Shown piece after piece: positions 13,455 to 40,071 of a stretch of 64,000 nt of DNA. This DNA comes from Bdellovibrionales bacterium. Its GTDB lineage: Bacteria; Bdellovibrionota; Bdellovibrionia; Bdellovibrionales; UBA1609. Location: assembly GCA_020850475.1 (NCBI GenBank), contig JADZEO010000113.1, positions 631-64,630 on the forward strand. The letters are read 5' to 3'. The position numbers and the translations under genes are program-made. The notes under the pieces were generated by a model. The model ran no database searches and was not told the origin of the DNA. It saw only the letters and a program-made list of their open reading frames with translations. The stretch's first letter is position 1; every line of letters starts with the position of its first letter.

Positions 13455-13604
13455 ATGAGTACCAATCAAGAGGTTCCGTTGGGCCAGCGTCTATGTGACA
13501 GCCCATTTCTCCTGCTCATCGCAGGTATTGTCGTTATGTTCGCGTTTTACACAATTTGGGGATTGATCGAAGTGCTCAACCTCCCCCAAGCCACCTTGCC
13601 TTAA
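13455..13604 (+). CDS. Single-TM small subunit of the heme-copper enzyme (subunit IIa/CbaD-like position)
   Basis: GAGGAG RBS precedes the ATG at 13455. The 49-aa product has one TM (PFLLLIAGIVVMFAFYTIWGL) and is the first gene before subunits II and I. Confidence 0.65.
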   Translation: MSTNQEVPLGQRLCDSPFLLLIAGIVVMFAFYTIWGLIEVLNLPQATLP

Positions 13605-13632
13605 GGTGTGAGATACAGAAAGGATTGCAACT

Positions 13633-14181
13633 ATGTCTGACAATTCCATGCATTCTGGCATTGTCTCTCCAAAGGGAATCTGGTGGGTACCTGCCGCTCC
13701 TCAAGAGAGAAAATGGGTCATCGTCGCCTTCATTTGGTGTATGATTTTGTTTGCGATGATGCCTTTGTGGCACTTGCGCGGGGGACAAAACCCGTCAGGT
13801 ATTCGTGCGAAAGTATCAGCCGCCGATTACGAAGCGCGGGTGAATCGCTTTATTGAAGAACATAAAGTGGGCGAAGACAAAGGTGTGCCGATTGTAGCAC
13901 CGCCTCCCGGCAGCGATGTTTATCTGCTCGGCCGGATGTGGTCTTGGTCTCCCATTTTAAAACTTAAAAAAGATACCGAATACACTCTGCACTTGTCGTC
14001 TGTGGACCTCAATCACGGCTTTTCTCTCTATCCGGTGAACATCAACTTCCAAGTGGTTCCTGGCTATGATTACGGCCTGAAGGTCACGCCGAGCAAAGCG
14101 GGTGAATTTAGTATTATCTGCAACGAGTTTTGCGGCATTGGCCACCACTTGATGGTGGGCAAAGTCATCGTCGAAGAGTAA
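13633..14181 (+). CDS. Heme-copper oxidoreductase subunit II (CuA), eNOR-type
   Basis: One TM plus a cupredoxin domain with the CuA ligands NHG and CNEFCGIGHHLM. Confidence 0.9.
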   Translation: MSDNSMHSGIVSPKGIWWVPAAPQERKWVIVAFIWCMILFAMMPLWHLRGGQNPSGIRAKVSAADYEARVNRFIEEHKVGEDKGVPIVAPPPGSDVYLLGRMWSWSPILKLKKDTEYTLHLSSVDLNHGFSLYPVNINFQVVPGYDYGLKVTPSKAGEFSIICNEFCGIGHHLMVGKVIVEE

Positions 14182-14193
14182 GAGGGGTAAAAC

Positions 14194-15921: not shown

Positions 15922-15927
15922 GCAAGA

Positions 15928-16851
15928 ATGCGGAAGTCGGCGCTCATCGCCATTTTGGTTTGGTTGGGGGCCACACTGTTTTGGTGGGCCTTCGCCTTCG
16001 CGCCGACTTCAGCTGAGACCCCCGGATGGTTTGAGGCAGCTCGCGTGGCATGCTTTGGACGCATGCCCAATGGGCTGCCCGAACCCTACGGCTGGTTAAA
16101 TCTCGTGCTCAGTCCTATCACTCTCGCCATTACTATTCTCTTTATTTGGAGCCCCCAGGAACTCAAAGAAACTTTTAAGTCGCTAGCCAGTCGTCGCGCC
16201 GGTCAGGCCTTTTTGGTTTGCACGCTGGGCGTGGTTTCAGCTCTCAGTGTTTGGGTCGGACAAAGTGTTCACAAAGCCATTCAAATCGAAATGGTTGACT
16301 TTAGTGCTCCTGATCCCAAGGCTGAGTTACCCGAAGACTACCCACGGCTTAACCGGGTACTTCCGGCGTTTTCTCTTGTCGATCAAACTGGCAACACCAT
16401 CACCGAGAAGTCTTTTTTAGGCCGACCCGTGGTACTGACATTTGCCTTTGCTCACTGTGCGACCGTCTGCCCGGTCATCATCCATCAGGTCCTTCAAGGA
16501 ATTAAGGCCGAAGATGGTGCTGAATTTTTAATCATCACTCTCGATCCCTGGCGAGACACTCCCGGGTCTTTGCCTTCAATCGCCAAAGAGTGGGAGCTTC
16601 CCGAGTTTGCCCATGTGCTCTCTCATCAAAATCCCAAAATTGTGTCAGAGCTTTTTCCCTTATTCGACATGCCAGCCACTCGTGACGATAAAACGGGTGA
16701 CATCACTCACCCAGCCTTGGTATTCGTCATAGATCCGCAAGGACAATGGATCTATACGTTTAACAATCCTCATCCCAGTTGGTTGTCTGAGGCAATTCGT
16801 CGAGTGAGTCTAAAACATGCAGGAATACAAAAGCCTCTACGATATCAGTGA
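15928..16851 (+). CDS. SCO/SenC copper chaperone with N-terminal membrane domain
   Basis: The thioredoxin-fold C-terminus has FAHCATVCP (CxxxC), ITLDPWRD and a distal His (ITHP). The N-terminus has three TMs. Confidence 0.85.
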   Translation: MRKSALIAILVWLGATLFWWAFAFAPTSAETPGWFEAARVACFGRMPNGLPEPYGWLNLVLSPITLAITILFIWSPQELKETFKSLASRRAGQAFLVCTLGVVSALSVWVGQSVHKAIQIEMVDFSAPDPKAELPEDYPRLNRVLPAFSLVDQTGNTITEKSFLGRPVVLTFAFAHCATVCPVIIHQVLQGIKAEDGAEFLIITLDPWRDTPGSLPSIAKEWELPEFAHVLSHQNPKIVSELFPLFDMPATRDDKTGDITHPALVFVIDPQGQWIYTFNNPHPSWLSEAIRRVSLKHAGIQKPLRYQ

Positions 16852-18859: not shown

Positions 18860-19097
18860 TTCCTCCTCGCTCTGGCATTTCGTCGGAGCGAGAATTCACT
18901 CTGCAGAATGTCGAATTTCCCTTGAGAAGGATTGTCCCGTGGTGCCAATTTGGGTTCGGGCGCAAACGTCCCATCCACCTGGATTCATTAGCTAAATCAA
19001 AATTCCTGCGCTTTCAATATCCTTGCATCTACCTGGGGATCACCCTACAATCTGAGGACTTAAATTAAATGCTTAATCATTGTTTTTCGAATCGTGA

Positions 19098-21089
<1,992 letters not shown>

Positions 21090-21153
21090 AATTGAATGGG
21101 GGGTACACCCACCAGACAGCGACCTCGTTGGGGGTCGCTGGTATTGACAGATT

Positions 21154-21187
21154 AATAAAACCCCCTCTAGTAGGGGGTTTTATTTTT
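21154..21187. terminator. Bidirectional intrinsic terminator between nirS and the FNT gene
   Basis: AATAAAACCCCCT-ctagt-AGGGGGTTTTATT, flanked by A and T tracts, between convergent genes. Confidence 0.85.
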
Positions 21188-21974
21188 TGGCCTCAGTGCT
21201 GGTAACTTCACCGCGCGAGATCCACCAATAAGCCGCACCCATAAAAAGAAAGCCGCTAAAGATATTTCCGAGCGTGACCGGAATCAGGTTGTGAGCAACT
21301 CCGGCCCACGAAACCGTTTCACTGGGAACCACCATGGCGGCGAGAGTGAGCAAAGTCATATTGGCAACACTGTGTTCGTAGCCTGAACCGATAAAGCCAA
21401 ACAAACACCAAAAGATCATGATGAGTTTTCCAGACTCTGTTTTGAGGCGATAGCAACTCCACACCGCGAGGACGACCAACCAGTTACACAAAATACCTCG
21501 CAAGAATAGTTTCCAAAAACTTAACCCCATTTTCTTAGTCGCCACCACCGAAAGAAAATGAAGACCCGCCTCGTTTGAAAAAATCCCGGCTTCCGACACC
21601 ATCCAAGCCAAGAGCAAGGATCCTAAAAAGTTCCCGAGGTAATTGACGGCAAACAACTTGCCAACGGTTTGCCAAGAAATTGCGCCCTTCAGTGCTCCCA
21701 CCGGTAAAACCATGGTGTTGCCGGTAAAGAGATCTGAGCCCGCGAGAATCACCAAACTCAGGGCGATACCAAAACTGGTACCCATCACCAGGGGCACTAA
21801 AGGGGAATTTGCTTCATAAAGAGGGGCGCCGAGTACAAAAATCAGAATAATACCCAAACCGACGTAAGCCCCAGCCATCGCCGCATGCAGGAGATATCCC
21901 GATAGGTTTTTTTTAAAAAGTCCCGCTTTGGATCGAGCTGACTCCGCAACGCTGTCTATGACGCCTTGATATAT
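21180..21974 (-). CDS. Formate/nitrite transporter (FNT family, nitrite-channel NirC type); start probably ATA at 21974
   Basis: Motifs are AMAGAYVG, GSDLFTGNTM, NYLGNFLG, RGILCNWLVVLA, GYEHSVANM and VTLGNIFSG. No in-frame ATG lies near the expected N-terminus; the alternative is TTG at 22049. Confidence 0.88.
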   Translation of the reverse strand: MYQGVIDSVAESARSKAGLFKKNLSGYLLHAAMAGAYVGLGIILIFVLGAPLYEANSPLVPLVMGTSFGIALSLVILAGSDLFTGNTMVLPVGALKGAISWQTVGKLFAVNYLGNFLGSLLLAWMVSEAGIFSNEAGLHFLSVVATKKMGLSFWKLFLRGILCNWLVVLAVWSCYRLKTESGKLIMIFWCLFGFIGSGYEHSVANMTLLTLAAMVVPSETVSWAGVAHNLIPVTLGNIFSGFLFMGAAYWWISRGEVTSTEAKK

Positions 21975-22074
21975 AGAATAGCCCCATGTGTTGTTCTGTT
22001 TGCCTGTGCATATCAAGTTTGAGACAAATAGTAAAAAGACAATGAGCAAAATGTCTCAATTAGAAAGGCGCACC

Positions 22075-23088
22075 ATGCGAAAGATGATGCTTATTTGGAC
22101 GGTGTTTAGTCAGTTGGTCTCAATCGCCGCTTTTGCAGATGTATCAGACGGACAAAAACTCTTTCAACAGCGTTGTATCTCCTGTCACACCGTCGGAAAA
22201 GGCAAGGGCGTTGGCCCTGACCTTCAAGGCGTTACCCAGCGACGGGAACAGGCTTGGTTACACCGTTGGATCCGCGAGCCCGATAAAATGCTCGCAGAAA
22301 ATGATCCGACGGCAACAGCACTCTTAAAAGAGTACAACCAAGTCCCAATGCCCAACATGGCAATCACCCCTGAGCAAGCCGATCAAATTCTGGCTTACCT
22401 GGCGAATCCAACCGCAGAAGCCGCTGCTTCTGGCGATGCCAATACCGCAGCCGGAACTACGAGTGAGGCTACCTCCCCGGGGGGAAGCAGTCAAGCGCAT
22501 GATCAAGCTCCAACTTTTGCGACGAGGGGTCGAACTCAAAACATCGCCTTCTTCTCGTTTTTGTTTATCGCGCTGGTCATTGTTCTGGTGTTCTTTTGGG
22601 TGGGTAGCACAACTTCGAATCCTCAAACCATCGATATGAAAGCCGCTTACAAGTTACGCAAAGTGTTTTTCATTTCGGGATCATTCGTTGCGATGGGGAT
22701 CTTGGCCATCACCATGTCCAAGACACCTTATGCTGATGCCCTCACCACTCCCGACAATGTGATCTATGCCACTGCCATGCAGTTTAGCTTCACTTTCTCG
22801 AATGAGCCAGTGAGCAGCGCGCAAGAGCTCTCAACGGTATCGCCCATCAGCTCGCTTGAAATTCCACGAGACACTTTGGTTGAATTTCGGGTCACCAGTC
22901 TCGACGCCACTCATGGCTTTGCCATTTACAATCAACAAGGCGTGGTCTTTGCCCAAACTCAAGCTATGCCGGGGTACACCAATCGACTGCGGGTGCGTTT
23001 TTCTGAACCTGGTGTCTACCCGGTGCTTTGTTTGGAATATTGCGGGGCCGCTCATCACATGATGCGTACCTCACTCGTCGTAAAATGA
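22075..23088 (+). CDS. Heme-copper oxidoreductase subunit II with an N-terminal fused cytochrome c (sNOR-type)
   Basis: GAAAGG RBS precedes the ATG at 22075. The order is signal peptide, CISCH...MPNM cytochrome c, Ala/Ser/Thr linker, two TMs, then CuA ligands THG and CLEYCGAAHHMM. Confidence 0.85.
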   Translation: MRKMMLIWTVFSQLVSIAAFADVSDGQKLFQQRCISCHTVGKGKGVGPDLQGVTQRREQAWLHRWIREPDKMLAENDPTATALLKEYNQVPMPNMAITPEQADQILAYLANPTAEAAASGDANTAAGTTSEATSPGGSSQAHDQAPTFATRGRTQNIAFFSFLFIALVIVLVFFWVGSTTSNPQTIDMKAAYKLRKVFFISGSFVAMGILAITMSKTPYADALTTPDNVIYATAMQFSFTFSNEPVSSAQELSTVSPISSLEIPRDTLVEFRVTSLDATHGFAIYNQQGVVFAQTQAMPGYTNRLRVRFSEPGVYPVLCLEYCGAAHHMMRTSLVVK

Positions 23089-23107
23089 ACGGAAAGGTTT
23101 AAGAAAA

Positions 23108-24523
23108 ATGGATTTAGCAAAAAAGAATACCCTCGCCTGGATTGCAATTACACTCATTCTGTTCCCCATCCTTTTGTTACTCGGAATTCTCATGCGGACC
23201 GTACAGGCCAATGGGCTTAGTGCGGCTCAGGAGTGGTTTTACCCCTTTATGACTCTTCACGGAGTCGGCATGGTTGGTGTTTGGTATGTGGGTGCGATGG
23301 CTTGTGCCGAACGCATTATCGCCAAGTACACCAAACCCAGTGCCGCGATTTCAACCTTTGCAATTGTGGGCACCACTATCGGCGTGGTGCTGCTGTTGGT
23401 TTGCGTGCTCATTGGCAAGTTTGCGGCAGGTTGGTACTTCCTTTACCCACTCCCCTTCAAGGGTAACTGGCCGGTTTGGGCAGCGACTACCTTTTTACTT
23501 TCAATCACGGTTCTCGGTGCCACTTGGCTCATTTGGAGCTTAGATCTTTTGCGCGCGATCGCACAAAAGTACTCCATCTCCAAAGCTCTGGGTTGGCACT
23601 ACATCGGAGGCGCCACCGAACCTGATGTACCTCCGGCAATTATCATTTCAACTGTCAGCCTTCTCGCCTGTGTCGCCTGTCTTTTGGCCGGCGTCACCGT
23701 GCTCGTGCTCTTTGACGCCGAACTCATCGCAGGAGTCCGCAATGACGCCTTGTTGGTGAAGAACTTGACCTTCTTTTTTGGTCACGTCCTGGTGAACTTG
23801 AGTCTCTATTTGGGTGTGGCAGTCATTTACGATGTTCTCCCTCAATATTGTGATCGTCCGTGGAAAGCGAATAAGATTGTCGCGATTTCTTGGAATAGCG
23901 TACTCGCGATTGTTTTTATGGCTTACTTCCATCACCTCTATATGGACTTTGTGCAGCCGACGACCTTTCAATATCTGGGACAAATCGCATCTTACATGAG
24001 TTCACTTCCCGCCGCTGTGGTCACGATCTTTGGCGCCTTGGCACTGGTGTTCCATGCTAAGATGCGCTGGACTCTTACCTCCGCCTTGTTTTACTTAGCT
24101 CTCATGGGCTGGGCGATCGGCGGCGTTGGTGCAGTCATCGACTCCACGATTGCCGTAAACTCAAAGTTTCACAACACCCTTTGGGTGCCAGCTCACTTTC
24201 ACACCTATATGTTAGAAGGCCTGGTACTGATGGTGCTTGGCTACTACTATCATTTCGTTCAAGAGAACGCGAAACTCCCCGAGAGCTGGGGCTTTCATAA
24301 AGTCATCTTGAGTATGATTGTCGTCGGCGGCTACGGCTTTCTGATGATGTTTTATATCTCAGGTGCGAATTCAGTCCCTCGACGTTTCGCGACCTACCCT
24401 GCAGAAGTAGCACACGGTGCCTCTTACTCGGGTTTCGCGGCGGTTTTTGCCACCGTGTTTTTCATGGGTTTACTTCTTTATGCCATCGAGACTGGAAAGC
24501 GCTGGCTGAATGTTCGCGGTTAA
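23108..24523 (+). CDS. Heme-copper oxidoreductase subunit I, probable sNOR-family nitric oxide reductase
   Basis: His ligands are TLHG, GH226, FHH and AHFH. The cross-link Tyr position is Asn (H226-V-L-V-N230). It also has HHLYMDF and HNTLWVPAHFH and is a compact 471 aa. Confidence 0.75.
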   Translation: MDLAKKNTLAWIAITLILFPILLLLGILMRTVQANGLSAAQEWFYPFMTLHGVGMVGVWYVGAMACAERIIAKYTKPSAAISTFAIVGTTIGVVLLLVCVLIGKFAAGWYFLYPLPFKGNWPVWAATTFLLSITVLGATWLIWSLDLLRAIAQKYSISKALGWHYIGGATEPDVPPAIIISTVSLLACVACLLAGVTVLVLFDAELIAGVRNDALLVKNLTFFFGHVLVNLSLYLGVAVIYDVLPQYCDRPWKANKIVAISWNSVLAIVFMAYFHHLYMDFVQPTTFQYLGQIASYMSSLPAAVVTIFGALALVFHAKMRWTLTSALFYLALMGWAIGGVGAVIDSTIAVNSKFHNTLWVPAHFHTYMLEGLVLMVLGYYYHFVQENAKLPESWGFHKVILSMIVVGGYGFLMMFYISGANSVPRRFATYPAEVAHGASYSGFAAVFATVFFMGLLLYAIETGKRWLNVRG

Positions 24524-26522: not shown

Positions 26523-26564
26523 TTCAAACTCCTTCATTTCTCTTTCAATTTGGTGAACGGACAA

Positions 26565-28666: not shown

Positions 28667-28887
28667 AGGCCTATGACTTAATGCATTATTCCCTCTGTCG
28701 CAAGTCTTTTGGGAACAAACTGATCCCAAACGGCCCGGGAACGGGTAAAAATTTCATCACCCCGAGCGAGCTCAAAACGAGTTTCTGATGATTTCATAAA
28801 TAATTGATTTTATTAGATAATTTATTTCAAAAAGGGGGCGCAACTAAAGTCCCCATGAAGGGTTATCTATAGAGATGGGGGTGTCAC

Positions 28888-30739: not shown

Positions 30740-32038
30740 TCATCGAAATAAAATGGCGCGATACATGCTTACGGCCATCTTTACCCGGGCATCAAAATAA
30801 GCGTCGCCACTTGAGCCGGTGCGAGCATAACGTTCGACGAGAGCCACATTTTCGGCAAGCGCCGCATTGGTGTTGGAGGCAAGAGGAATATTGGTGGCGA
30901 GCGCGGGTTTGGGATCAGGCATCGACGGCAAACCAAAGTCGGCTGGCGCGAAGGTGGCTTCAATCAGACTTCCTTCTTTACTGTAGGAAATCTTGGTCGG
31001 TCGGGCCAGCGATGGGGCCAGCGAACCCTCGACCGTCTTAAAAGTCACCACCACATTTTTGAATCCGACTCGCTCGCCAATTTCGATCATCTTTTCATTA
31101 AAATTATGATGGAAGGCCGAGCCAATAAAAAAATCAGCCCGAAAGGGCGAGACATATTTTTCGAGGGTTGCAAGGCCTGGCCGCTTGACCATTTGGCGAC
31201 GCAACTCAACCCAACGATCAAGTGCAGGCGCCACCTCGGCTTGTCGCAAGTACCAACCGCTGGGCGACGGTTCTTCTGCGAGATCAAGATTGGAGCCCAA
31301 AAATCGTCCGCCCAAGGCTTCGGCAAGATCCAAAAGATTGTGTCCGCGCTTAGGACCAGGATTTCTTCCGCAGACCGCCACCACTCGAAAACCCATCGAG
31401 CCCAATTCTTTCATTATTAGCGGAGTAATGATGTGAGAGCGTTCCACCCCATCAAAGGGTTCGGCCAGCTGAATGATGGGCGCACCTGGTGGCGTCGGCT
31501 CACAAAATTCCGGCGGGAAATGCGCTTCAAGCGCTGACAAAATTCCTGCATACTCGTCGGGGTTGGCGTAGCGCACCCGCATAATAGTCGCCGTCAAGGT
31601 GCGCAGGCCGTCGCCCGCAGTCGGGACTGGATCAGTCCCCGGAGCAAACCAAAAGTCACCCAGCTCGCGCGCCTCGGCGTAAGACAAAATCTTTCCGCCC
31701 AAAAGTTGCCGAGCAAGCTCCACAATTCGAGGATTAACCCCCTCGGAAAAATACTTCAAGAGAGAGGACTCACTCGCCAGGGCGTCAGAGCCGGAGTCGG
31801 CGCCAGAGGCGACGTCGGCCGAGGGGCCGAGTAAGGCAGCAAAAGCGCGCTCTTCGGGGGCAACGCCCTTCATCCACAGCCCGCCAAAAAAAGCTCCTAA
31901 GGTGGGTTTCGGCGGAGGATTGATCCTCGCGTCGGACAAAATACGCTCAATCAACTCGACGGGACAGGTCTCACTGCCCTTTTTGCCTGTGCCAACGTAA
32001 TCCAGTCCCTCGACAATTGAGTGAGTCCTCAATTCCAC
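30740..32038 (-). CDS. Anthranilate phosphoribosyltransferase-like (glycosyltransferase family 3, YbiB/TrpD2-like) protein
   Basis: The N-terminal helical bundle has VGTGKKGS and GAFFGGLWMKG, followed by EPFDG, the RxxxxKRPxxATLEK segment and GSAFH. The start overlaps the nirJ stop by 10 nt. Confidence 0.7.
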   Translation of the reverse strand: MELRTHSIVEGLDYVGTGKKGSETCPVELIERILSDARINPPPKPTLGAFFGGLWMKGVAPEERAFAALLGPSADVASGADSGSDALASESSLLKYFSEGVNPRIVELARQLLGGKILSYAEARELGDFWFAPGTDPVPTAGDGLRTLTATIMRVRYANPDEYAGILSALEAHFPPEFCEPTPPGAPIIQLAEPFDGVERSHIITPLIMKELGSMGFRVVAVCGRNPGPKRGHNLLDLAEALGGRFLGSNLDLAEEPSPSGWYLRQAEVAPALDRWVELRRQMVKRPGLATLEKYVSPFRADFFIGSAFHHNFNEKMIEIGERVGFKNVVVTFKTVEGSLAPSLARPTKISYSKEGSLIEATFAPADFGLPSMPDPKPALATNIPLASNTNAALAENVALVERYARTGSSGDAYFDARVKMAVSMYRAILFR

Positions 32039-33219
32039 CCGAGATCTCCTTTGAGTTCCGCCTCCACACTCGCGGGTTTGAGTTTAATCTCCTGATCTGA
32101 GAGATAACAGCCGGGATCTTCTGCCCAAAAGTTACCAGTGGTCTGGTAGGCACGCACGCGGGCATTGCCGTTACAAATCTGAAATTCTCCACAACGCCCG
32201 CAACGCCCTTCCAGGGGGCGAACGGTGCCGCCTTTAAGACCCTTCATCAAGGGATCGCTCAAGTCCTGCCAAATTTCCGAAAATTTGCGCTCGCGCACAT
32301 TGCCCAAGTGATAATCCCACCAAAAGGAATCAGGATGGACGTTGCCCAAGTTATCAATGTTGGCAATGCCAACCCCGGTTGAGTTACCGCCCCACTCTTC
32401 AAGTTTGCCGCGAATGTGATCGGCCTTATCGGGAAAATGACGTTGCACCCAAGTTAAGAAAAAGACTCCATCGGCATCGTTGTTGCCGGTCACAAACTCC
32501 CGACCCGTATCCTCGACGACGTTGCGCCAAGCCTCGGCAAAAAGCTTCTCCATGGCTTCACGAGTGGCCCCATGCTGAGCGTCTTTTTCCCGGTTGACCC
32601 GCCCGCGGCCAGAGTAATTTAGGTGGGACATGTAAAACTTGTCGAGCTTCTCGGTGCGCATAAAATCAAGTAAAGCATCGAGATCCTGCTTATTCTGCTC
32701 AGTGAGAGTGAAACGCAAACCCACCTTGAGTCCGTGGTCGCGGCAGAGGCGAATTCCCTTGAGCGAGTCCGCGAAAGCACCCTTTTTGCCGCGGAAAAAA
32801 TCATGGACCTCGCCAATCCCATCCAGACTAATCCCAACATAGTCGTAGCCCGATTCCACAATGACTCCGATATTTTCCTCAGTAATCAGAGTGCCGTTGG
32901 TGGAGAGACCGACGTAAAAGCCCAGCTCCTTGGCACGCCGAGAAAGCGCAAAGATATCGGGACGCAAAAGTGGCTCACCGCCCGACAAGATCAAAACCGG
33001 CACGCGAAACTGCCGCAAATCTTCCATCACCGCCAGGGCCTCTTCAGTGGTGAGCTCACCCTTAAAATCACGGTCGGCGGAATTGGTGTAGCAGTGCTGG
33101 CAGAGTAAATTACAGCGACGGATCAAATTCCAAATCACCACCGGCCCCGGTGGCCGACGGCGGGGACGCACCGGCGTGGGATTTTGCAACTCGCGCAGCA
33201 AATGTGTCATGCGAAACAT
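32029..33219 (-). CDS. nirJ: Heme d1 biosynthesis radical SAM protein NirJ
   Basis: PPGPVVIWNLIRRCNLLCQHCY, LSGGEPLLRPD, WGGNSTGVGIANID and a C-terminal SPASM region (CGRC..F.IC.GN.RVRA....W.EDPGCY). Confidence 0.95.
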   Translation of the reverse strand: MFRMTHLLRELQNPTPVRPRRRPPGPVVIWNLIRRCNLLCQHCYTNSADRDFKGELTTEEALAVMEDLRQFRVPVLILSGGEPLLRPDIFALSRRAKELGFYVGLSTNGTLITEENIGVIVESGYDYVGISLDGIGEVHDFFRGKKGAFADSLKGIRLCRDHGLKVGLRFTLTEQNKQDLDALLDFMRTEKLDKFYMSHLNYSGRGRVNREKDAQHGATREAMEKLFAEAWRNVVEDTGREFVTGNNDADGVFFLTWVQRHFPDKADHIRGKLEEWGGNSTGVGIANIDNLGNVHPDSFWWDYHLGNVRERKFSEIWQDLSDPLMKGLKGGTVRPLEGRCGRCGEFQICNGNARVRAYQTTGNFWAEDPGCYLSDQEIKLKPASVEAELKGDLGWN

Positions 33220-33224
33220 ACTCG

Positions 33225-33728
33225 TTACCCTTCCCGTACCAAACGAAATCCTGTTTTCTTTAAAATCTTACGGCTAAACAAAACATCCGAAGACCGCACG
33301 TGACCTGCGAGCACCTGACGAATTTCTTCGACCTGCGCCAGCGCCTCGTCCCGGGTTTTGGCGTGAACCATCGCAAAAAGATTGTATGGCCATACCCCTG
33401 AGTGGCGCGGGCGCAAATAACAATGACTGACAAACGGTAAAGCTCCGACCCGAGTTCCCAGCTCTTCGGCGAGTTCATCGGGCACATCCCACACAGTCAT
33501 GCCATTGGCGCGATAGCCGAGCCGATAATGATTGGGGACCGCAGCGATTCGGCGAACTGCACCTGAGTCCAGCCAGCGTTGAAGGCGCACTTTGACTTCT
33601 TCGACCGGCAATCCTAATTGCTCGGCCACCGCATGATAGGGCTTGGCAACGAGTGGAAGGCCTTGCTGGGTGGCTTCAATCAAGCGCAAGTCGAGATCAT
33701 CGAGGAAAACCTCCGTCGGATCAGTCAC
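33225..33728 (-). CDS. nirH: Siroheme decarboxylase subunit NirH
   Basis: Lrp/AsnC-like fold with QGLPLVAKPY, PNHYRLGY..NGMTVW, VSHCYLRPR, WPYNLFAMVH and ILKKTG. The GTG start overlaps the upstream stop. Confidence 0.9.
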   Translation of the reverse strand: MTDPTEVFLDDLDLRLIEATQQGLPLVAKPYHAVAEQLGLPVEEVKVRLQRWLDSGAVRRIAAVPNHYRLGYRANGMTVWDVPDELAEELGTRVGALPFVSHCYLRPRHSGVWPYNLFAMVHAKTRDEALAQVEEIRQVLAGHVRSSDVLFSRKILKKTGFRLVREG

Positions 33729-35241
33729 CGCTGACCTCCAACTGCAAATTCAAGTAGAACTCTTTGAGCTTAGGCATCGAATAGGGTTTTAAACCCGTGG
33801 CTTGTTCGATTTTGTTCAAGACCTCGGCCAGCTGCGAAGCCGGTAACGCCGCGACGACCATCCACATATTCAAACGGTGTTCACGCTCGTAGTTGTGAGC
33901 CACTTCGGGAAAACGATTGACCAGGTCCACGACTTCTTCCCAGCGATCCCGGGGAACTTCCATTGCCAATAAGCTAAAAGTTCCGCCCAACTTTTCGATG
34001 TTGTACATGGGACCAAAGCGCGTGAGCAAACCTTCAGCGCGCAGCTCAGTCAATCGCTGGCAAACTGCCTCTTCCGTCATCCCCAGCCGAGTCGCCAAAT
34101 CAAAAAACGGCCGGTCAATCACCGCTAAACCTTTTTGCAATTCTTGAATGAGTACGGTGTCGACCGCCTTTGAGTCGGGTGAAGTTGTCGCTTGAGGCGC
34201 AGAGGCCGCGGACGCTGGCATCTCTGCCGATGGCGGTCGGGTTGCCAAATACCGCGAGCCCCGTTGCTTAAACGCCCGGGTCGAAAACAACACTCGCTGC
34301 GAAAGTCCGGTCAAATTGAACTCGCTTACCAGCGACTCGACTTGCAACAACACTTCCGATCGGGAGCGGCCGTGAATCATGCAATACAAATTGTAGGGCC
34401 ACTCTGGCGACGTCTGCCGCTCGTAACAAAGGGTCACAAATGGTTGACGTGCCAGGGCTCGACCCAATTCGCGGGTGCGTGCCAAGGGACACTGCCACAC
34501 AACCATCGCATTGGCTTGATAGCCCAACGGACGATGACGGACGATCACTCCCATCCGACGGATCACCCCGCGAGTCAAAAGGCCCTGCAAAATGACACTC
34601 ACTTCTTCAGCTGTGATCCCCAGCTCGTCAGCCCAGCGATCGAAGGGGCGCGAGTTCAAAGGTAAACCTGGCTCAAGGCGTTCGCACAAAGCTCGTTCAA
34701 CTGCTGACAACTCGGCCGGGCCTTGGGCCACACCTTCAACAAACGTCACTGACTCACCAGCGGGTCCCGAGAGATCAAAGCCTAAGTCGATGCGATACTC
34801 GTAAACCAAGCGGCAGTCGACGACTGGGTTCCCTGCCCGCTCGCCAATGGCGAGTAATATTTCCTGAAGGCGAGCTTCGCTGGGCGCGGTCACCACAAAC
34901 CAAAGATTGAGTTCGCCTTCACGTTCGTAGTTGTGATTGACTTCCTCGAAGGAATTAATAAAACCCGCGACTTTTTCCACCTGCGCGGGGGAGACCCGCA
35001 CCGCAGCCAGTGTGCTGGGGCCCAAGGCCTGAGGGCGAAACACAGCACCCAAGCGGGTGACAACGCCTTGCTCGGACCACTCTTTTAACTGACTGATGAT
35101 TTGGGCTTCCGGGAGATGGAGCTCGCGACCCAAATCAAAAAACGGAGTGACCGACAGTGGAAATTCCCGTTGAAAATCATTGAGCAAACGCCACTGGGGA
35201 GTTCCTCGTTGGGGCCAGCTGAATTCTCTTTGGATTTCCAT
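33721..35241 (-). CDS. nirDLG: Siroheme decarboxylase NirD-NirL-NirG triple fusion
   Basis: The ATG is at 35241. Three tandem AsnC-like units follow: LLNDFQREFPL..VNHNYERE (D), GLPLNSRPF..VTLCYER..WPYNLYCMIHG (L) and TRFGPMY..EVAHNYERE (G). Confidence 0.88.
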   Translation of the reverse strand: MEIQREFSWPQRGTPQWRLLNDFQREFPLSVTPFFDLGRELHLPEAQIISQLKEWSEQGVVTRLGAVFRPQALGPSTLAAVRVSPAQVEKVAGFINSFEEVNHNYEREGELNLWFVVTAPSEARLQEILLAIGERAGNPVVDCRLVYEYRIDLGFDLSGPAGESVTFVEGVAQGPAELSAVERALCERLEPGLPLNSRPFDRWADELGITAEEVSVILQGLLTRGVIRRMGVIVRHRPLGYQANAMVVWQCPLARTRELGRALARQPFVTLCYERQTSPEWPYNLYCMIHGRSRSEVLLQVESLVSEFNLTGLSQRVLFSTRAFKQRGSRYLATRPPSAEMPASAASAPQATTSPDSKAVDTVLIQELQKGLAVIDRPFFDLATRLGMTEEAVCQRLTELRAEGLLTRFGPMYNIEKLGGTFSLLAMEVPRDRWEEVVDLVNRFPEVAHNYEREHRLNMWMVVAALPASQLAEVLNKIEQATGLKPYSMPKLKEFYLNLQLEVSGD

Positions 35242-35278
35242 GACCTCATGTGTATAACGAATGCCTGGAGTTTGAAAT

Positions 35279-35929
35279 ATGTTTTTTCCCGTCTTTATCC
35301 CTGTGCAAAATCGCCCCGTTTTGTTGGTGGGTGCCGGCCCCGTGGCGCTCGGGAAGGCGCAAAAACTCCTGCCTTTTAAGCCGCAACTGCGAGTCATTGC
35401 TCGGCAGGCCCTGCCTCAATTTAGTGACTGGGCAGCTCAAGGCCACTTGACGCTCGAACTCAGGGAATTTCGCTTTGAGGATTTAAGTGGGATTGAGATG
35501 GTCATTATGGCCGTCGACGACCTGGAACTGCAACGCCAGGTTTTTGAGTATTGCCAAGCTCAGCGGATTTTATGCAATTGCGTGGATGTCCCGGAGTACT
35601 GTTCGTGGATTTTTCCCGCACTGGTTCAGCGAAAAAATCTGGTGATTGCGATTTCCACCGGCGGTAAGGCCCCCTTTTTGGCTTCGACCCTTCGCCAATG
35701 GATTGAGCAAACCCTCCCGGTCGAGTTCGACGAGATCATCCACCAGGTGGAAAGTTTTCGTCGGTCGGCCGAGGTCGCCCAACTCAAGACGGCCGCCGAA
35801 CGAGGTCAAAAAGTGATCGAATTCGCGAAAAAACTTTTGACTGGAATCAAGCTTCAGCCGAAGAGCTTTGGCCCGCAGGAAAACTCAAGTTCCGAGGTGT
35901 CTCCGCCGTCAGTTCCCGCACCGGAGTAA
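35279..35929 (+). CDS. Precorrin-2 dehydrogenase/sirohydrochlorin ferrochelatase (SirC/Met8/CysG N-terminal domain)
   Basis: FPVF, the Rossmann motif LLVGAGPVALGK, CNCVDVP and IAISTGGKAPFLA. Confidence 0.88.
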   Translation: MFFPVFIPVQNRPVLLVGAGPVALGKAQKLLPFKPQLRVIARQALPQFSDWAAQGHLTLELREFRFEDLSGIEMVIMAVDDLELQRQVFEYCQAQRILCNCVDVPEYCSWIFPALVQRKNLVIAISTGGKAPFLASTLRQWIEQTLPVEFDEIIHQVESFRRSAEVAQLKTAAERGQKVIEFAKKLLTGIKLQPKSFGPQENSSSEVSPPSVPAPE

Positions 35930-36689
35930 ATCCACTCGAGTGGTGCTCCTCAGAAACAAACCAATTAAACTGCTGATGAAAACGGGCCACTTCACCGATC
36001 ACCATCACGCTGGGTGAGGACACCGCCGGAGGGTTGGTCGCCAGCTCATTGAGGTTCGTCAAAACCACCTTTTGCTCGCCCAAAGTGGCCTCCTGAATAA
36101 AAGCCACCGGCATTTCTTCCGGCCGACCCAAACTCATGAGCTCGCGGGCAATTGATTGACGATTCTTAACTCCCATCAGGACCACCAAGGTATCAACTTT
36201 GGCAAAGGCGCTCCAATCGACATACTCGGATTTTTCAGTCGCTTCGTGGCCGGTGACGACGGCAAAGGAGGCCGCCAACTGCCGATGGGTGACGGGAATT
36301 CCGGCATAGGCAGGCGCCGCCAAGGCCGAACTCACACCCGGCACCACTTCAAAGGCAATGCCGGCATCGACCAAACTCTGCAGCTCTTCCCCTCCCCGAC
36401 CAAACACAAAGGGATCGCCACCTTTAAGGCGCACCACTCGGAGGGGCTGCAAACCATAGTGCACCAACAAATCGTTGATTTGCTCCTGCGGAACCGGGTG
36501 ACTTCCGCAGCGCTTACCAACGGGCACCAGTTGGCAATCAGGACGGACCATTTTCAAGAGTTCGGCATTGACCAAATGATCGTAAAGCAAAACGTCGGCC
36601 TCGCGAAGTAAGCGCGCTGCCTTGAGTGTCAACAATTCGGGGTCGCCCGGTCCGGCACCCACCAAATAAACCCGTCCCTGCCTCGTCAT
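35847..36689 (-). CDS. nirE: Uroporphyrinogen-III C-methyltransferase (NirE/CobA)
   Basis: VYLVGAGPGDPELLTLKA, LYDHLV, VRLKGGDPFVFGRGGEE, VPGVSSA and GIPVTHR; located within the nir cluster. Confidence 0.93.
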   Translation of the reverse strand: MTRQGRVYLVGAGPGDPELLTLKAARLLREADVLLYDHLVNAELLKMVRPDCQLVPVGKRCGSHPVPQEQINDLLVHYGLQPLRVVRLKGGDPFVFGRGGEELQSLVDAGIAFEVVPGVSSALAAPAYAGIPVTHRQLAASFAVVTGHEATEKSEYVDWSAFAKVDTLVVLMGVKNRQSIARELMSLGRPEEMPVAFIQEATLGEQKVVLTNLNELATNPPAVSSPSVMVIGEVARFHQQFNWFVSEEHHSSGFTPVRELTAETPRNLSFPAGQSSSAEA

Positions 36690-36862
36690 AGGAACCCAAT
36701 TTACTCACCAGCGCGGCCAAGGCAATTCCTAGATTTGCTGAGAGACATTTTGACTCATCGTATATAGTAAAACCCTAGCCCCAAGGCTCCGACCGGGTGA
36801 GGGCTTGATCTGGGCCTCATTCGCCATTAATCTCGCGGGCCTTATGAAAGTGAGCCTCGCTC

Positions 36863-37234
36863 ATGACAGTCGCTAAAATGACAATCCTTATTGCCCCGCT
36901 TTTCGCTTCGCTGGTCGCGGCCATCACGACCCTAAGCCCCTTGCCCTTCTCCGCCGTGGCCCTCGCTAAGGACGGGTCGCTTGAGCCCGCTCGTCAAAAG
37001 GAGATTCTTTATCTTTTGCGCCAAGACTGCGGCTCCTGTCATGGAATGACTCTTAAAGGGGGCCTTGGGTCGTCGCTGCTGCCGGAAGTTTTAAAAGACA
37101 AACCCTCGGCCTTTTTAGTTGAAACCATTCGCGAAGGGCGCCAGGGAACCGCCATGCCGCCTTGGAAGCAGTTCCTCACCCAACAAGAAACGGAATGGCT
37201 GGTTGAAACACTTAAGACTGGAGTGAAAGAATGA
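36863..37234 (+). CDS. nirC: Cytochrome c55X NirC
   Basis: Signal peptide, LLRQDCGSCHGMTLKGGLG and GTAMPPW; immediately upstream of nirF. Confidence 0.92.
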   Translation: MTVAKMTILIAPLFASLVAAITTLSPLPFSAVALAKDGSLEPARQKEILYLLRQDCGSCHGMTLKGGLGSSLLPEVLKDKPSAFLVETIREGRQGTAMPPWKQFLTQQETEWLVETLKTGVKE

Positions 37235-38397
37235 ACCCGCGCTTTTTTGGTTTGCCCCTGATGGGACTCTTTATTTTCTGTTCTTGCACGACTCTGCGGG
37301 GAACCGGTGATTTAGGGCTGATCATTGAGCGCGCCGATGGCCGGGTGGCGATTTTAGAAACCAGCAGGCCCCAACTGCTCGGCTCCATTCCTGGTCTCGG
37401 TGATCTCTCCCATGCCTCAGCCGTTTATTCGCGCGATGGTCGCTTTGCCTTTATCTTTGGTCGGGATGGGGGCCTCACCAAGGTGGATCTCCTCACTCGC
37501 AAAATCGTCAAGCGCGTGTTGCAAGCGGGTAACTCCATCGGCGGCGCAATTTCTCGAGATGGATCGATGGTTGCCGTATCAAATTATGAACCCGGCGGCA
37601 TTAAAGTTTTCGCGAGCGACGATTTGACCCAGATTGCCGACATCGCGGCCAAGGGACCTACGGGCACACCATCGAAAGTGGTGGGACTCATGGATGCCGG
37701 CGGCCAGCGTTTTATCTTCAGCCTCTTTGATGGCGGAGAAACCTGGATTGCCGATGTAGCCAACCCACAAGACATCAAAATCCAAAAGTTCAAGGCAGGT
37801 TTACAGCCCTACGATGCGCTGCTGACAAGTGATGGCCGCTATTACATTACCGGGCTGTTTGGTGAAGACGGTTTGGCTCTTCTTGACCTTTGGTATCCCG
37901 AAAAAGGCATGAACAAAATCTTGTCAGGCTACGGACAGGGCAAAGAAAAGCTTCCCGTTTACAAAATGCCCCACCTCCAAGGTTGGGCCGCCGCCGGCGA
38001 ATACTTCTTTCTACCGGCGATTGGCGCCAAAGAACTGTTGGTCATGAAGCGCGACCAATGGACCATCCACCAGCGCATCCCCCTCGTCGGGCAACCAATC
38101 ATGGCCATGGCGAGCCCCGATGGCCAACAAGTTTGGGTGAACTTTGCCTTTCCCGACAACCAAAATCTCCAGGTGATTGATGTCAAAAATCTCCAAGTCG
38201 CCAAAAACCTGCAACCCGGCAAGGGTGTGCTGCACATGGAGTTTACTCCACGCGGAGATCAACTGTGGCTCTCCGTTCGCGACGAAGACCGCGTCGAAGT
38301 GTGGGACCCACAACAGTTTAAAAAACTCACCGAGATGAAAGTTCTAAAACCGAGCGGGATCTTTATGTCCGCCCGCGCTCACCGCATTGGGTTGTAA
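37231..38397 (+). CDS. nirF: Heme d1 biosynthesis protein NirF (lipoprotein)
   Basis: Lipobox FCSC, RGTGDLGLIIER, GLGDLSHAS, GRDGGLTKVD, YKMPHLQGW, VLHMEFTPRG and PSGIF..RAHRIGL. Confidence 0.95.
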   Translation: MNPRFFGLPLMGLFIFCSCTTLRGTGDLGLIIERADGRVAILETSRPQLLGSIPGLGDLSHASAVYSRDGRFAFIFGRDGGLTKVDLLTRKIVKRVLQAGNSIGGAISRDGSMVAVSNYEPGGIKVFASDDLTQIADIAAKGPTGTPSKVVGLMDAGGQRFIFSLFDGGETWIADVANPQDIKIQKFKAGLQPYDALLTSDGRYYITGLFGEDGLALLDLWYPEKGMNKILSGYGQGKEKLPVYKMPHLQGWAAAGEYFFLPAIGAKELLVMKRDQWTIHQRIPLVGQPIMAMASPDGQQVWVNFAFPDNQNLQVIDVKNLQVAKNLQPGKGVLHMEFTPRGDQLWLSVRDEDRVEVWDPQQFKKLTEMKVLKPSGIFMSARAHRIGL

Positions 38398-38400
38398 CCA

Positions 38401-40071
38401 ATGATGATGGCCGATCGATCTCCCACCCCACTGATGCTGTTGCTTCTTCTACTCCTCCTACCCTTGAGCGGGTGCACCTCGCCCACGCTGCAATCTCAAT
38501 CTGGGAGCGACGAGAAGACACCGCCCTCGTCAGCCGCCACCGCGACGGGAGCCGCCGGTGCGGGTTCCTCTGCCATCCCCGCTGAACACCTCCAGCTTTA
38601 TGTTACCCACTGTGCCAGTTGCCACGGCGAAAATCGTCTGGGTGGGATCGGGCCCGCGCTTTTGCCTGTGAGCTTGGGGCGACTGGCCCCCGAAAAGGCG
38701 AACCAAATTATCACCAACGGCAGCCCCGCGACCCAAATGCCGGCCTTTAAGGACCAACTCACGGTCGAGCAAATGAGCGCCCTCACCAAACTGATTTTTC
38801 AGCCCCCGCCTGTTGAGCCGACTTGGAATGAGAGGGAAATCCAAGCGTCGCGCCAAGTGACGAGCGGTTGGAAGGAGTGGCCCGCGCGCCCGGTTTTTAA
38901 AGCCGATCCCTTGAATATCTTTATGGTGGTTGAGTCCGGCGATCATCACATCACGGTTCTGGATGGTGATCGTTTGAAACCCCTGCTGCGGTTTCCGACC
39001 CGCTTTGCTTTGCACGGTGGAGTGAAGTACTCACCCGACGGGCGCTACGCCTACTTTGCTTCTCGCGACGGGTGGATCTCGGCCTTTGACATTTACAATC
39101 TAAAAATGGTGGCGGAAGTCCGCGTGGGTTTGAATAATCGCAATATCGCCGTTTCCGCTGATGGTCGCTATGTCGCCGCGGGCAATTACTTGCCCCACAC
39201 TTTGGTCATTCTTAAAGCACCTGAGCTCGAACCCCTTAAGGTAATCAAAGCTGAGACCGTCAAACAAGAATCCTCACGAGTGAGCGCAGTTTACACCGCT
39301 CCTCCGCGGGAAAGTTTCATCGTGGCCCTAAAGGATGTTCCCGAGCTCTGGGAGATCAGCACTCGCGACGATGCCGTTGCGCCCTACACGGGACTCGTGC
39401 ACGACTTTCGCTCTGAATCCGGTGAAGAGCTCCCCCGTGAGCGTGTGCCCTTTCCCATTCGGCGCATTCGGCTCGAAAGCCCGGTTGATGATTTCTTTTT
39501 TGACCAAAAATATGACCACTTAATTGGTTCCTCCCGCGGTGGGCAAGCGTGGGTGGTTAATCTTATCGTCGGTCGCCCGATTAAGCAGATTCCCTTGTCG
39601 GGAATGCCCCACCTCGGCGCTGGCATCTCTTGGCTCTACAAGGGTCACCGAATCATGGCAGCCCCCAATCTGCAAGAGAACAAAATCACGATTCTCGACA
39701 CCAACTCTTGGGAAATGCTCCGCGATCTCCCCACGCAAGGTCCCGGTTTTTTTCTTCGCTCGCATGAAAAGTCACCCTACGCCTGGGCAGATGTGTTTAG
39801 TGGACCCAACAAAGACTTGATGCATTTGATCGACAAACGGACACTCAAGATCGCTAAGACCCTTAAGCCCGTACCAGGAAAAGTGTCAGGTCACGTTGAG
39901 TTCGATCGCTATGGCAAATATGCGCTGTTAAGTATTTGGGAAGACCCGGGCGAATTGCTAGTTTACGATGCTCACACTCTTAAGATCGTCAAACGCCTCC
40001 CCATGCGCAAACCCTCTGGAAAATACAACGTCTTCAACAAAACCCGTCTCTCCGAGGGCACTTCGCACTGA
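38401..40071 (+). CDS. nirN: Dihydro-heme d1 dehydrogenase NirN
   Basis: Lipobox-like LSGC, CASCHGENRLGGIGPALLP, RFALHGG, MPHLGAG, GPGFFLRSHE, HVEFDRYG and PSGKYNV. Confidence 0.93.
   Translation: MMMADRSPTPLMLLLLLLLLPLSGCTSPTLQSQSGSDEKTPPSSAATATGAAGAGSSAIPAEHLQLYVTHCASCHGENRLGGIGPALLPVSLGRLAPEKANQIITNGSPATQMPAFKDQLTVEQMSALTKLIFQPPPVEPTWNEREIQASRQVTSGWKEWPARPVFKADPLNIFMVVESGDHHITVLDGDRLKPLLRFPTRFALHGGVKYSPDGRYAYFASRDGWISAFDIYNLKMVAEVRVGLNNRNIAVSADGRYVAAGNYLPHTLVILKAPELEPLKVIKAETVKQESSRVSAVYTAPPRESFIVALKDVPELWEISTRDDAVAPYTGLVHDFRSESGEELPRERVPFPIRRIRLESPVDDFFFDQKYDHLIGSSRGGQAWVVNLIVGRPIKQIPLSGMPHLGAGISWLYKGHRIMAAPNLQENKITILDTNSWEMLRDLPTQGPGFFLRSHEKSPYAWADVFSGPNKDLMHLIDKRTLKIAKTLKPVPGKVSGHVEFDRYGKYALLSIWEDPGELLVYDAHTLKIVKRLPMRKPSGKYNVFNKTRLSEGTSH

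Follow-up and report, generated by a model that had tools for sequence, protein, structure and literature searches.

A predicted nitrate-to-nitrous oxide pathway with eNOR-type and sNOR-type enzymes in an uncultured Bdellovibrionota bacterium from wastewater

Obligately aerobic predation is the lifestyle usually ascribed to Bdellovibrio-like bacteria. Here, we analyzed a 64,000-nt stretch of DNA (the window), nearly all of the 64.9-kb contig C113 in the metagenome-assembled genome (MAG) of an uncultured Bdellovibrionota bacterium. An earlier note on this stretch had listed nirS, heme d1 genes, an FNT-family channel, and two heme-copper enzymes with a CuA center, and Pfam and NCBIfam profiles recovered all of them at the same coordinates. 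The locus raises the question of whether the two heme-copper enzymes are oxidases or nitric oxide (NO) reductases (NORs), and which pathway they would serve. An annotation pipeline favors the first answer, as the note had warned: NCBI names homologues "cbb3-type cytochrome c oxidase subunit I". Judged by gene identity, active-site residues, and clade membership, one subunit I (P0001) is identified as eNOR-type and the other (P0002) as sNOR-type. The reading we prefer, with a probability of about 0.72, is that the island would form the core of a truncated denitrification from nitrate to nitrous oxide (N2O) in a wastewater Bdellovibrionota, with the eNOR-type enzyme as the NO reductase and the sNOR-type enzyme most likely as a second one.

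To assign the active-site residues, HMMER alignments to solved B- and A-family oxidases and a 99-sequence MAFFT alignment were used. The position of the cross-link tyrosine, Tyr237 in ba3, is occupied by Gln238 in P0001 (GHSSQQ versus GHPIVY in the ba3 and 7deg alignment) and by Asn230 in P0002 (GHVLVN versus GHPEVY), the same residue numbers as in the earlier note. All six histidine ligands, which serve the low-spin heme, the high-spin heme, and (three of them) the CuB/FeB site, are kept in both proteins. Those of P0001 (H73, H234, H283, H284, H388, and H390) correspond to H72, H233, H282, H283, H384, and H386 of ba3, and those of P0002 are H51, H226, H275, H276, H363, and H365, giving the ligand signatures H/HQ/HH/HH and H/HN/HH/HH, respectively. 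Gln stands at the cross-link site in 118 of the 119 closest P0001 homologues and Asn in 117 of the 120 closest P0002 homologues. In an exhaustive search for P0002 relatives over 1.8 billion 50%-identity representatives, full-length proteins with a readable site carried Asn down to about E = 1e-50, and Tyr-bearing ones appeared only from E = 1e-36. This near-uniformity indicates that the two substitutions are properties of the families and not accidents.

A maximum-likelihood tree of 93 sequences was built under LG+C20+F+G4 with support from the Shimodaira-Hasegawa-like approximate likelihood ratio test (SH-aLRT); the references were plasmid copies from Thermus, Thermomicrobium roseum, Defluviimonas, Ruegeria, Natrialba, and Deinococcus together with ba3 and 7deg. 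P0001 lies in a clade of 35 members, all 35 with Gln (SH-aLRT 96), and its placement inside this clade is supported by values of 96-100. The Gln clade spans at least 12 phyla, includes the plasmid copies from Thermus thermophilus, T. roseum, and Defluviimonas, and has as its sister group the B-family oxidases that bear the Tyr (ba3, 7deg, Natrialba, and Deinococcus). P0002 lies in a clade of 44 members (44/44 Asn, SH-aLRT 99), which also holds the megaplasmid copies of Ruegeria pomeroyi and T. roseum and a representative, P0254. Neither protein thus clusters with the Tyr-bearing B-family oxidases, in agreement with the earlier note. The 90% cluster of P0254 contains proteins of Ca. Methylomirabilis oxyfera/NC10, for which qNOR, sNOR, and gNOR have been described (PMC11214002). 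Since sNOR is the only one of these three that fits an all-His center with Asn at the site, the P0254 cluster probably represents sNOR, and P0002 shares its clade.

The families eNOR, sNOR, gNOR, and nNOR were defined by Murali et al. 2024 (PMC11214002), and Gln at the cross-link site is the criterion for the eNOR in-group (PMC8756737, citing Hemp & Gennis 2008). The K-channel-like residues agree in part with the family descriptions. Conserved K-channel-like polar residues are described for eNOR (PMC11214002), and in P0001 the corresponding Y249, S311, and T317 are conserved in 33-35 of the 35 Gln-clade members, with His314 at the equivalent of ba3 T312 in all 35. For sNOR, the K-channel Ser (ba3 S309) is described as missing, with a conserved Glu at another location (PMC11214002); the equivalent of S309 in P0002 is Ala302, which is not conserved across the Asn clade. 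The eNOR of Rhodothermus marinus reduces NO and not O2, carries a modified heme a (As), and operates at micro-oxic levels in a species formerly counted among the strict aerobes; it is the only eNOR for which reduction of NO but not of O2 has been shown (PMC11214002). The earlier note was mistaken in regarding sNOR as known mainly from ammonia oxidisers, as the family is widely distributed (PMC11214002).

A relative on a Thermus thermophilus plasmid (pTthSNM6-6b, 7983-9668) shows a variant of the eNOR-type center. It has GHGAQQ at the site and Lys in place of the second helix-X His; a His/Lys heme ligand has been described for some eNORs (PMC11214002). Its neighbors are a multicopper oxidase (possibly nirK), a cytochrome P460, a radical SAM protein, and an Rrf2 regulator, and the subunit I itself is annotated as a cbb3-type or ba3-type oxidase.

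The eNOR-type genes form one tight five-gene operon (13455-18859, forward strand; Table 1). The 49-aa protein encoded first is probably the counterpart of ba3 subunit IIa. Subunit II carries the CuA motif CNEFCGIGHHLM from residue 163, matching the pattern CxExCx3Hx2M. To see how far this arrangement is conserved, we examined the 80 closest eNOR loci, all from MAGs and with the window's own record left out (L010-L089). Subunits II and I were present in 80/80 each, the small subunit gene lay directly upstream of subunit II in 71, the SCO1 gene was kept in 72, and a cytochrome b-FeS (iron-sulfur) fusion adjoined the eNOR-SCO1 genes in 67, across many phyla. Given this co-occurrence, the small subunit, subunits II and I, SCO1, and the cytochrome b-FeS protein behave as one transferable five-gene cassette. 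The cytochrome b/ferredoxin fusion is a candidate for a dedicated electron-input partner of the eNOR-type enzyme; its C-terminal ~300 aa are without a family match.

This operon can be compared with two published ones. Like the eNOR of R. marinus DSM 4252 (PMC11214002), the enzyme of the window is related to the B family, has a CuA subunit II, Gln at the Tyr site, all His ligands, and the K-channel-like polar residues, and is liable to mis-annotation as a cytochrome c oxidase by pipelines; both hosts also have NirS, and R. marinus was long regarded as an aerobe. In Ferrigenium straubiae, the eNOR operon likewise includes sco1 and a similar cytochrome b/[Fe-S] gene, the latter called unusual (10.64898/2026.01.22.701106). 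Unlike in these two, ctaA and ctaB are absent from the operon of the window (ctaB and a ctaA-like gene lie on another contig), and the operon is followed by nirS and then by a second, sNOR-type enzyme. R. marinus denitrifies completely to N2, whereas the host of the window has no NosZ. Its eNOR activity has been measured, whereas the enzyme of the window is known from its sequence and likened to it through published descriptions.

The sNOR-type operon has the gene order norS-norY-senC, that is, CuA subunit II, subunit I, and senC/SCO, as expected for sNOR. The start of subunit II at 22075 was taken from gene calls in independent assemblies, its long open reading frame (ORF) beginning at 21988. 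Numbered from 21988, the protein has a heme c motif CISCH at residue 63 and the CuA motif CLEYCGAAHHMM at 348, which also fits CxExCx3Hx2M. The same three genes are found in Ruegeria and in a related Pseudobdellovibrionaceae genome, in which the SCO homologue is 48% identical and the subunit II homologue also matches over the tethered cytochrome c; the Ruegeria and T. roseum copies lack this domain. The sNORs of ammonia oxidisers, Nitrococcus mobilis, and Ca. M. oxyfera share with the window the order II, I, SenC/SCO, the Asn for the cross-link Tyr, and the loss of the ba3 S309 equivalent, and the Ca. M. oxyfera/NC10 cluster falls in the same Asn clade. They differ in that subunit II of the window has the N-terminal tethered cytochrome c and in that no "orf1" follows senC. 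The ammonia-oxidiser hosts are nitrifiers with NirK, whereas the host of the window is a heterotroph with NirS.

Divergent from the sNOR-type operon lies the gene of the FNT channel, which is nearest to the nitrite channel NirC, with scores below the NCBIfam cut-offs for both NirC (216 bits, cut-off 293) and fnt (213 bits, cut-off 232). An FNT gene adjoins sNOR-type genes in three unrelated organisms: in the window and on the megaplasmids of R. pomeroyi DSS-3 and T. roseum. The order in Ruegeria is subunit II, subunit I, SCO, a hypothetical gene, FNT, and a cytochrome c. This recurrent linkage fits a role of the sNOR-type enzyme in nitrite/NO metabolism.

Between the two operons, 268 bp behind the eNOR-type genes, begins nirS. 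NirS has two heme c motifs, CAACH at residue 36 and CAGCH at 161, and therefore an extra N-terminal (class I) cytochrome c domain. The extension is apparently common to a genome of the same family (aligned from residue 14); the alignments of other Bdellovibrionota NirS start only at about residue 94-138. The window holds the full heme d1 set for this cd1 enzyme: nirE, nirD/L/G/H, nirJ, nirF, and nirN. We add to the earlier list a SirC-like gene, which lies between nirE and nirDLG on the opposite strand and shares 83 bases with the 3' end of nirE, while it also runs into the start of the long nirDLG ORF. Because of this overlap, the true start of nirDLG is probably downstream of 35397.

The canonical cd1 nitrite reductase and heme d1 cluster is nirSMCFDLGHJEN of Pseudomonas aeruginosa, and the window has its nirS, nirC, nirF, nirD/L/G/H, nirJ, nirE, and nirN. 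In contrast to that cluster, the heme d1 genes of the window stand in divergent units ~10 kb from nirS, nirD, nirL, and nirG are fused, and SirC-like and TrpD2-like genes are embedded among them. No nirM occurs in the nir cluster of the window, where NirS has its extra cytochrome c domain instead. The partner of the P. aeruginosa system is norCB; here the partners are the eNOR- and sNOR-type enzymes.

The remainder of the 3.9-Mb genome (175 contigs; estimated 100% complete with 1.5% contamination) defines both ends of the chain. The COX1 profile has only four matches genome-wide, namely an A-family oxidase on contig C118, P0001, P0002, and a divergent 452-aa homologue on C63; therefore, neither cNOR nor qNOR is present in the window or in the genome. 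Searches for NosZ of clades I, II, and III returned only CuA-domain or propeller fragments genome-wide (at most 39 bits versus cut-offs of 625-700), and the genome is not that of a complete denitrifier. The note's statement that the window lacks norCB, qNOR, and nosZ thus holds and extends to the whole genome. The search for nar or nap, norB, and nosZ elsewhere in the genome, which the note had called for, found narG, narH, narJ, and narI on contig C157, with G (1445 bits), H (649 bits), and I (129 bits) all over their NCBIfam cut-offs. Their surroundings include a NarK-like transporter that scores under its cut-off, a hemerythrin-like protein, and molybdenum-cofactor-like genes, the last recognized by sequence motifs only. 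Of the nitrite-to-NO-to-N2O chain proposed in the note, the genes are there and the chain stands as a prediction; its start is to be moved from nitrite to nitrate.

For the heme A synthesis expected with an eNOR, whose two heme sites are described as holding modified heme a, ctaB is found on contig C24 (213 bits, cut-off 210). For quinol oxidation, an operon resembling that of alternative complex III (ACIII), actABCDEF, lies at C40:16551-23896 and encodes a pentaheme protein, a 1051-aa FeS protein, a 503-aa NrfD-family protein, two small proteins (one of them monoheme), and a 438-aa membrane protein. A bc1 complex was considered and rejected, since neither a Rieske motif nor a second cytochrome b was found genome-wide.

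Taken as a pathway, these genes suggest the following steps. NarGHI would reduce nitrate to nitrite in the cytoplasm, which, with narGHJI present, places the start of the chain at nitrate, and NarK and/or the FNT channel would move nitrite across the membrane. Periplasmic cd1 NirS, with its own extra cytochrome c domain, would reduce nitrite to NO, its heme d1 being supplied from the island through nirE, the SirC-like gene, nirDLG-H, nirJ, nirF, and nirN. The eNOR-type enzyme, consisting of the small subunit, the CuA subunit II, and the Gln238 subunit I, would convert NO to N2O, the predicted end product in a genome with no NosZ. Electrons may pass from quinol through the ACIII-like complex and c-type cytochromes to the periplasmic enzymes, and the cytochrome b/ferredoxin fusion beside eNOR may offer a second route. 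The sNOR-type enzyme, with Asn230 and a CuA subunit II to which a cytochrome c is tethered, most likely serves as a second NO reductase under other conditions. Heme A synthesis, on which eNOR depends, requires O2, and an aa3-type oxidase is also present in the cell; the pathway therefore probably operates under micro-oxic conditions (aerobic denitrification), as in R. marinus.

Transcription in the field was assessed in four wastewater metatranscriptomes from one study through RNA contigs at least 97% identical to the window. For nirS, a discrete full-length RNA contig (19084-21153) was recovered with a word depth of 13-19 in three runs and ~7-8 in the fourth, which makes it the most abundant transcript of the region, Logan contig depth being a rough guide to expression only. 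The eNOR operon was covered by contigs at 13439-16156 and 17973-18859 (word depth ~2-8), the heme d1 genes showed patchy coverage at low depth, and the sole RNA contig of the sNOR operon was 22046-22454, in the 5' part of subunit II (word depth ~3-6). The sharp, gene-bounded coverage beside neighbors of zero depth argues for RNA and against carry-over of DNA. Thus, nirS and the eNOR operon are transcribed in the field. An RNA join between 33036 and 40444 had only 21 matching letters on one side and was treated as a chimera or as belonging to another organism.

Several points weigh against the pathway as drawn. We infer the enzyme activities, any energy conservation (including the proton pumping raised in the earlier note), the role of the sNOR-type enzyme, and any link to predation. 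The tree was built without the R. marinus eNOR and without an ammonia-oxidiser sNOR, so that family membership is judged by the diagnostic residue, by how the clades are structured, and by relatives that carry names. In a broader sample of the Asn clade, no Glu was conserved at 90% or more, only Asp280 and Asp345. The function of sNOR is described as predicted (PMC11214002), biochemical NO reduction has been shown for no sNOR, the evidence for that of N. mobilis being only indirect (cited in PMC6967387), and Sedlacek et al. proposed that the sNOR of Nitrosomonas europaea may be a high-affinity O2 reductase (PMC6967387). Depth in the metatranscriptomes is, as said, a coarse measure, and sNOR subunit I and its SCO gene had no RNA contig in any of the four (depth 0). 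The ctaA-like ORF beside ctaB scores 61 bits versus a cut-off of 550. As for regulation, ten FNR/Dnr-type boxes (TTGAT-N4-ATCAA, one mismatch) occur in the window, none of them in the eNOR, nirS, sNOR, or nirE/nirC promoter regions, and when the region upstream of nar is added to these, no 9-mer is common to three or more of the set.

The host of the window contig is an uncultured Bdellovibrionota bacterium related to MAGs labelled Pseudobdellovibrionaceae. RpoB, on contig C146, is 78-84% identical to that of five named MAGs (four at 82-84%), and the nearest ones are labelled Bdellovibrionaceae, Pseudobdellovibrionaceae, Oligoflexia, or Bdellovibrionales; identity falls to 61-66% for other Bdellovibrionota and to 52-58% for other phyla. 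GlpX, a housekeeping gene inside the window (57209-58171), ranks the genomes in the same way as RpoB and is 74-76% identical to that of the same three MAGs closest by RpoB. In tetranucleotide profile, the window contig ranks 4 of 120 contigs in closeness to the genome mean. RpoB, the on-contig GlpX, and composition thus agree in placing the contig in a Bdellovibrionota genome. The sub-regions of the island are not outlying either, and a recent transfer or mis-binning of the island was rejected, its composition being within the norm of the genome.

A predatory lifestyle is suggested for this host by its taxonomy. Alternatively, the host could be a heterotroph that lives freely, denitrifies facultatively, and is a member of Bdellovibrionota by descent only; "predator-type" would then be a taxonomic guess and the pathway would be unrelated to predation. 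HMG-CoA reductase has been proposed as a marker of predators, and a simple motif search for it found none, which is a weak test; 3.9 Mb is at the large end of the family (1.9-4.2 Mb in sampled genomes). The known cultured members of Bdellovibrionales and Pseudobdellovibrionaceae are predators, and the RpoB of the host is 82-84% identical to that of MAGs so labelled. Moreover, nitrate-dependent anoxic predation by B. bacteriovorus HD100 has been reported, as cited in a recent preprint (bioRxiv 10.64898/2026.07.03.736386). On this balance we consider a free-living host a serious alternative, on the doubtful side.

The truncated pathway would look different if eNOR were the sole respiratory NO reductase and sNOR served mainly for NO-tolerant, high-affinity scavenging of O2 or for the reduction of another small molecule. 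The O2-reductase role proposed for the N. europaea enzyme was drawn from how strongly it is induced when O2 is limiting and from its heme-copper center (PMC6967387), and, besides the predicted status of sNOR and the lack of biochemical characterization of any member noted above, nirS and eNOR transcripts were present in the same samples in which sNOR subunit I had none, which indicates that the two enzymes are regulated differently. However, the Tyr that gives the fourth electron for O2 reduction is Asn in all members of the clade, no migrated Tyr has been reported for these families, and bNOR, with the same active site, has been experimentally shown to reduce NO (PMC11214002). The position of the operon beside nirS and a NirC-like channel, with the sNOR-FNT linkage recurring in Ruegeria and T. 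roseum, also speaks for NO reduction, and a separate job for sNOR appears unlikely.

It is also conceivable that the island mainly detoxifies nitrite and NO from denitrifying prey or sludge neighbors and does not conserve energy. This option, raised in the earlier note, suits a habitat rich in denitrifiers, and a possible detoxifying role of eNOR was mentioned in the Ferrigenium preprint (10.64898/2026.01.22.701106). However, NirS produces NO and does not remove it, an outlay as large as a complete heme d1 pathway of about ten genes, narGHJI, and a NarK-like transporter is typical of respiration, and nirS is the leading transcript of the region; detoxification as the main function is accordingly quite improbable. 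The last alternative, that the contig is mis-binned or chimeric and its respiratory genes come from another organism, might be suspected because the MAG is in 175 pieces, one of which is taken up almost entirely by the window, and because eNOR-type proteins are ~75% identical across many phyla (which makes the eNOR tree little informative on the host), but it can be dismissed as very unlikely since composition, the GlpX ranking, and repeated assembly agree: six independent assemblies, one of them on a 91-kb contig, give the same gene order including the non-respiratory flanks, and the nearest named eNOR in the tree belongs to one of the three MAGs closest by RpoB.

Carried further, a truncated nitrate-to-N2O pathway in this host would describe a sludge predator that respires nitrate or nitrite to N2O while preying at low O2, with an electrogenic eNOR fed by the cytochrome b/ferredoxin protein, sNOR acting under other O2/NO regimes, and the five-gene cassette as a self-contained quinol-to-NO unit spread horizontally over more than 15 phyla. 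We regard this fuller picture as rather unlikely and offer it only tentatively. If it were true, predatory bacteria that have no NosZ would themselves release N2O directly during wastewater treatment. Even in its narrower form, the truncated pathway, if read correctly, makes a widespread wastewater population a predicted nitrate-to-N2O denitrifier with no N2O reductase that transcribes nirS and eNOR; near-identical DNA was found in metagenomes of 14 studies, mostly from activated sludge/wastewater, bioreactor, and sediment. It would supply a possible extra N2O source for treatment-plant models and a genetic basis for the activity of such bacteria at low oxygen. The genome also allows a side-by-side comparison of eNOR and sNOR, which could help to settle whether sNOR is an NO reductase; its value lies in correct annotation, in ecology, and in offering a good experimental target.

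What is new here is a rare, compact combination (NirS, eNOR, and sNOR, with Nar elsewhere and no NosZ) and not a new system, as both enzyme families were already known. P0001 has more than 8000 relatives, and the best 120 are 74-87% identical and come from many phyla. About 25 of the 80 closest eNOR species genomes are labelled Bdellovibrionota, Bdellovibrionales, Bacteriovoracaceae, Pseudobdellovibrionaceae, or Oligoflexia, and nitrite and NO reductase genes in Bdellovibrio-like predator genomes have precedent in a preprint (bioRxiv 10.64898/2026.07.03.736386); in both respects the earlier note had overstated the rarity of the find. In an even sample of 300 other Bdellovibrionota species, eNOR was found in 5, NirS in 3, and sNOR in 0. 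Among 14 genomes known to carry eNOR (14 by selection), 4 had NirS and 1 had sNOR, and sNOR was not found in two NirS-bearing, eNOR-less genomes. The genome described here is alone in combining NirS, eNOR, and sNOR among the ~325 Bdellovibrionota genomes searched. In the 80 related loci, nirS lies within 10 kb of eNOR in 8 and sNOR in none.

Several organisms hold NORs of more than one family, among them Ca. M. oxyfera (qNOR, sNOR, and gNOR) and Bacillus azotoformans (qNOR, sNOR, and bNOR) (PMC11214002). The genome of the window resembles them in having two NOR families and differs in that the pair is eNOR plus sNOR with no cNOR or qNOR, the two operons lying within 10 kb and flanking nirS. 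With B. bacteriovorus HD100 and other predators it shares the phylum and the genomic potential for partial denitrification; unlike our analysis, the preprint survey of such predators screened nitrite reductases (EC 1.7.2.1) and makes no mention of nirS, eNOR, or sNOR (10.64898/2026.07.03.736386).

Table 1. Positions of the respiratory and heme d1 genes in the window and the profile matches or other evidence for each.
Feature	Position	Strand	Evidence
49-aa small subunit of eNOR-type enzyme	13455..13604	+	One hydrophobic helix; gene called in six independent assemblies
eNOR-type subunit II, CuA cupredoxin without heme c	13633..14181	+	Pfam COX2; NCBIfam CoxB weak; under curated cut-offs
eNOR-type subunit I, P0001, 575 aa	14194..15921	+	Pfam COX1 216 bits
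SCO1/SenC copper chaperone of eNOR operon	15928..16851	+	Pfam SCO1-SenC 71 bits
Cytochrome b (b6-like)/2x[4Fe-4S] ferredoxin fusion, 680 aa	16817..18859	+	Pfam Cytochrome_B and Fer4
cd1 nitrite reductase NirS with extra N-terminal cytochrome c	19128..21089	+	Pfam Cytochrom_D1 481 bits and two cytochrome c stretches
FNT-family channel, nearest to nitrite channel NirC	21180..22010 (long ORF to 22049)	-	Pfam Form_Nir_trans 223 bits
sNOR-type subunit II: N-terminal cytochrome c, two transmembrane helices, CuA	22075..23088	+	Pfam Cytochrom_C and COX2
sNOR-type subunit I, P0002, 471 aa	23108..24523	+	Pfam COX1 152 bits
SCO1/SenC-like gene of sNOR operon	24510..25274	+	Pfam SCO1-SenC 30 bits
TrpD2/YbiB-like (glycosyltransferase family 3)	30740..32038	-	Weak NCBIfam matches PRK07394 and YbiB only
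nirJ, heme d1 radical SAM enzyme	32029..33219	-	TIGR04051 588 bits, cut-off 515
nirH, siroheme decarboxylase subunit	33225..33728	-	Pfam AsnC_trans_reg2, NirdL-like_HTH
nirD-nirL-nirG fusion, siroheme decarboxylase	33721..35397	-	Three AsnC_trans_reg2 and helix-turn-helix repeats; AhbA 258 and AhbB 288 bits, over cut-offs
SirC/CysG-N-type precorrin-2 dehydrogenase/sirohydrochlorin ferrochelatase	35279..35929	+	Pfam NAD_binding_7 92 bits, Sirohm_synth_M 26
nirE, uroporphyrinogen-III C-methyltransferase	35847..36689	-	TIGR01469 315 bits, cut-off 185
nirC-type monoheme cytochrome c	36863..37234	+	Pfam Cytochrome_CBB3 41 bits
nirF, d1-type beta-propeller without heme c domain	37231..38397	+	Pfam Cytochrom_D1 344 bits
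nirN, cytochrome c and d1-type propeller, last heme d1 synthesis step	38401..40071	+	Cytochrom_D1 351 bits and Cytochrome_CBB3

The TrpD2-like gene is co-oriented with nirJ and overlaps its stop, as if it were the last gene of a heme d1 operon; we know of no TrpD2/YbiB-like member in the described heme d1 pathway. Two ORFs with products of 417 and 412 aa (25311-27803 and 27800-28729, both on the reverse strand) have no Pfam or NCBIfam match. With the sNOR operon on one side and a DUF4423/TIGR02147 helix-turn-helix protein on the other, they set the NOR genes apart from those for heme d1. The fourth subunit I homologue of the genome, at C63:1007-2404, is very divergent: it scores 32 bits with COX1 (below cut-off), has no NCBIfam match, and has no adjacent subunit II gene. 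Of the ligands, the His of helices II and X and the first CuB His are retained; the Tyr position holds His, and Ala-Pro replaces the HH pair. In the tree, the protein stands on a very long branch beside the eNOR clade.

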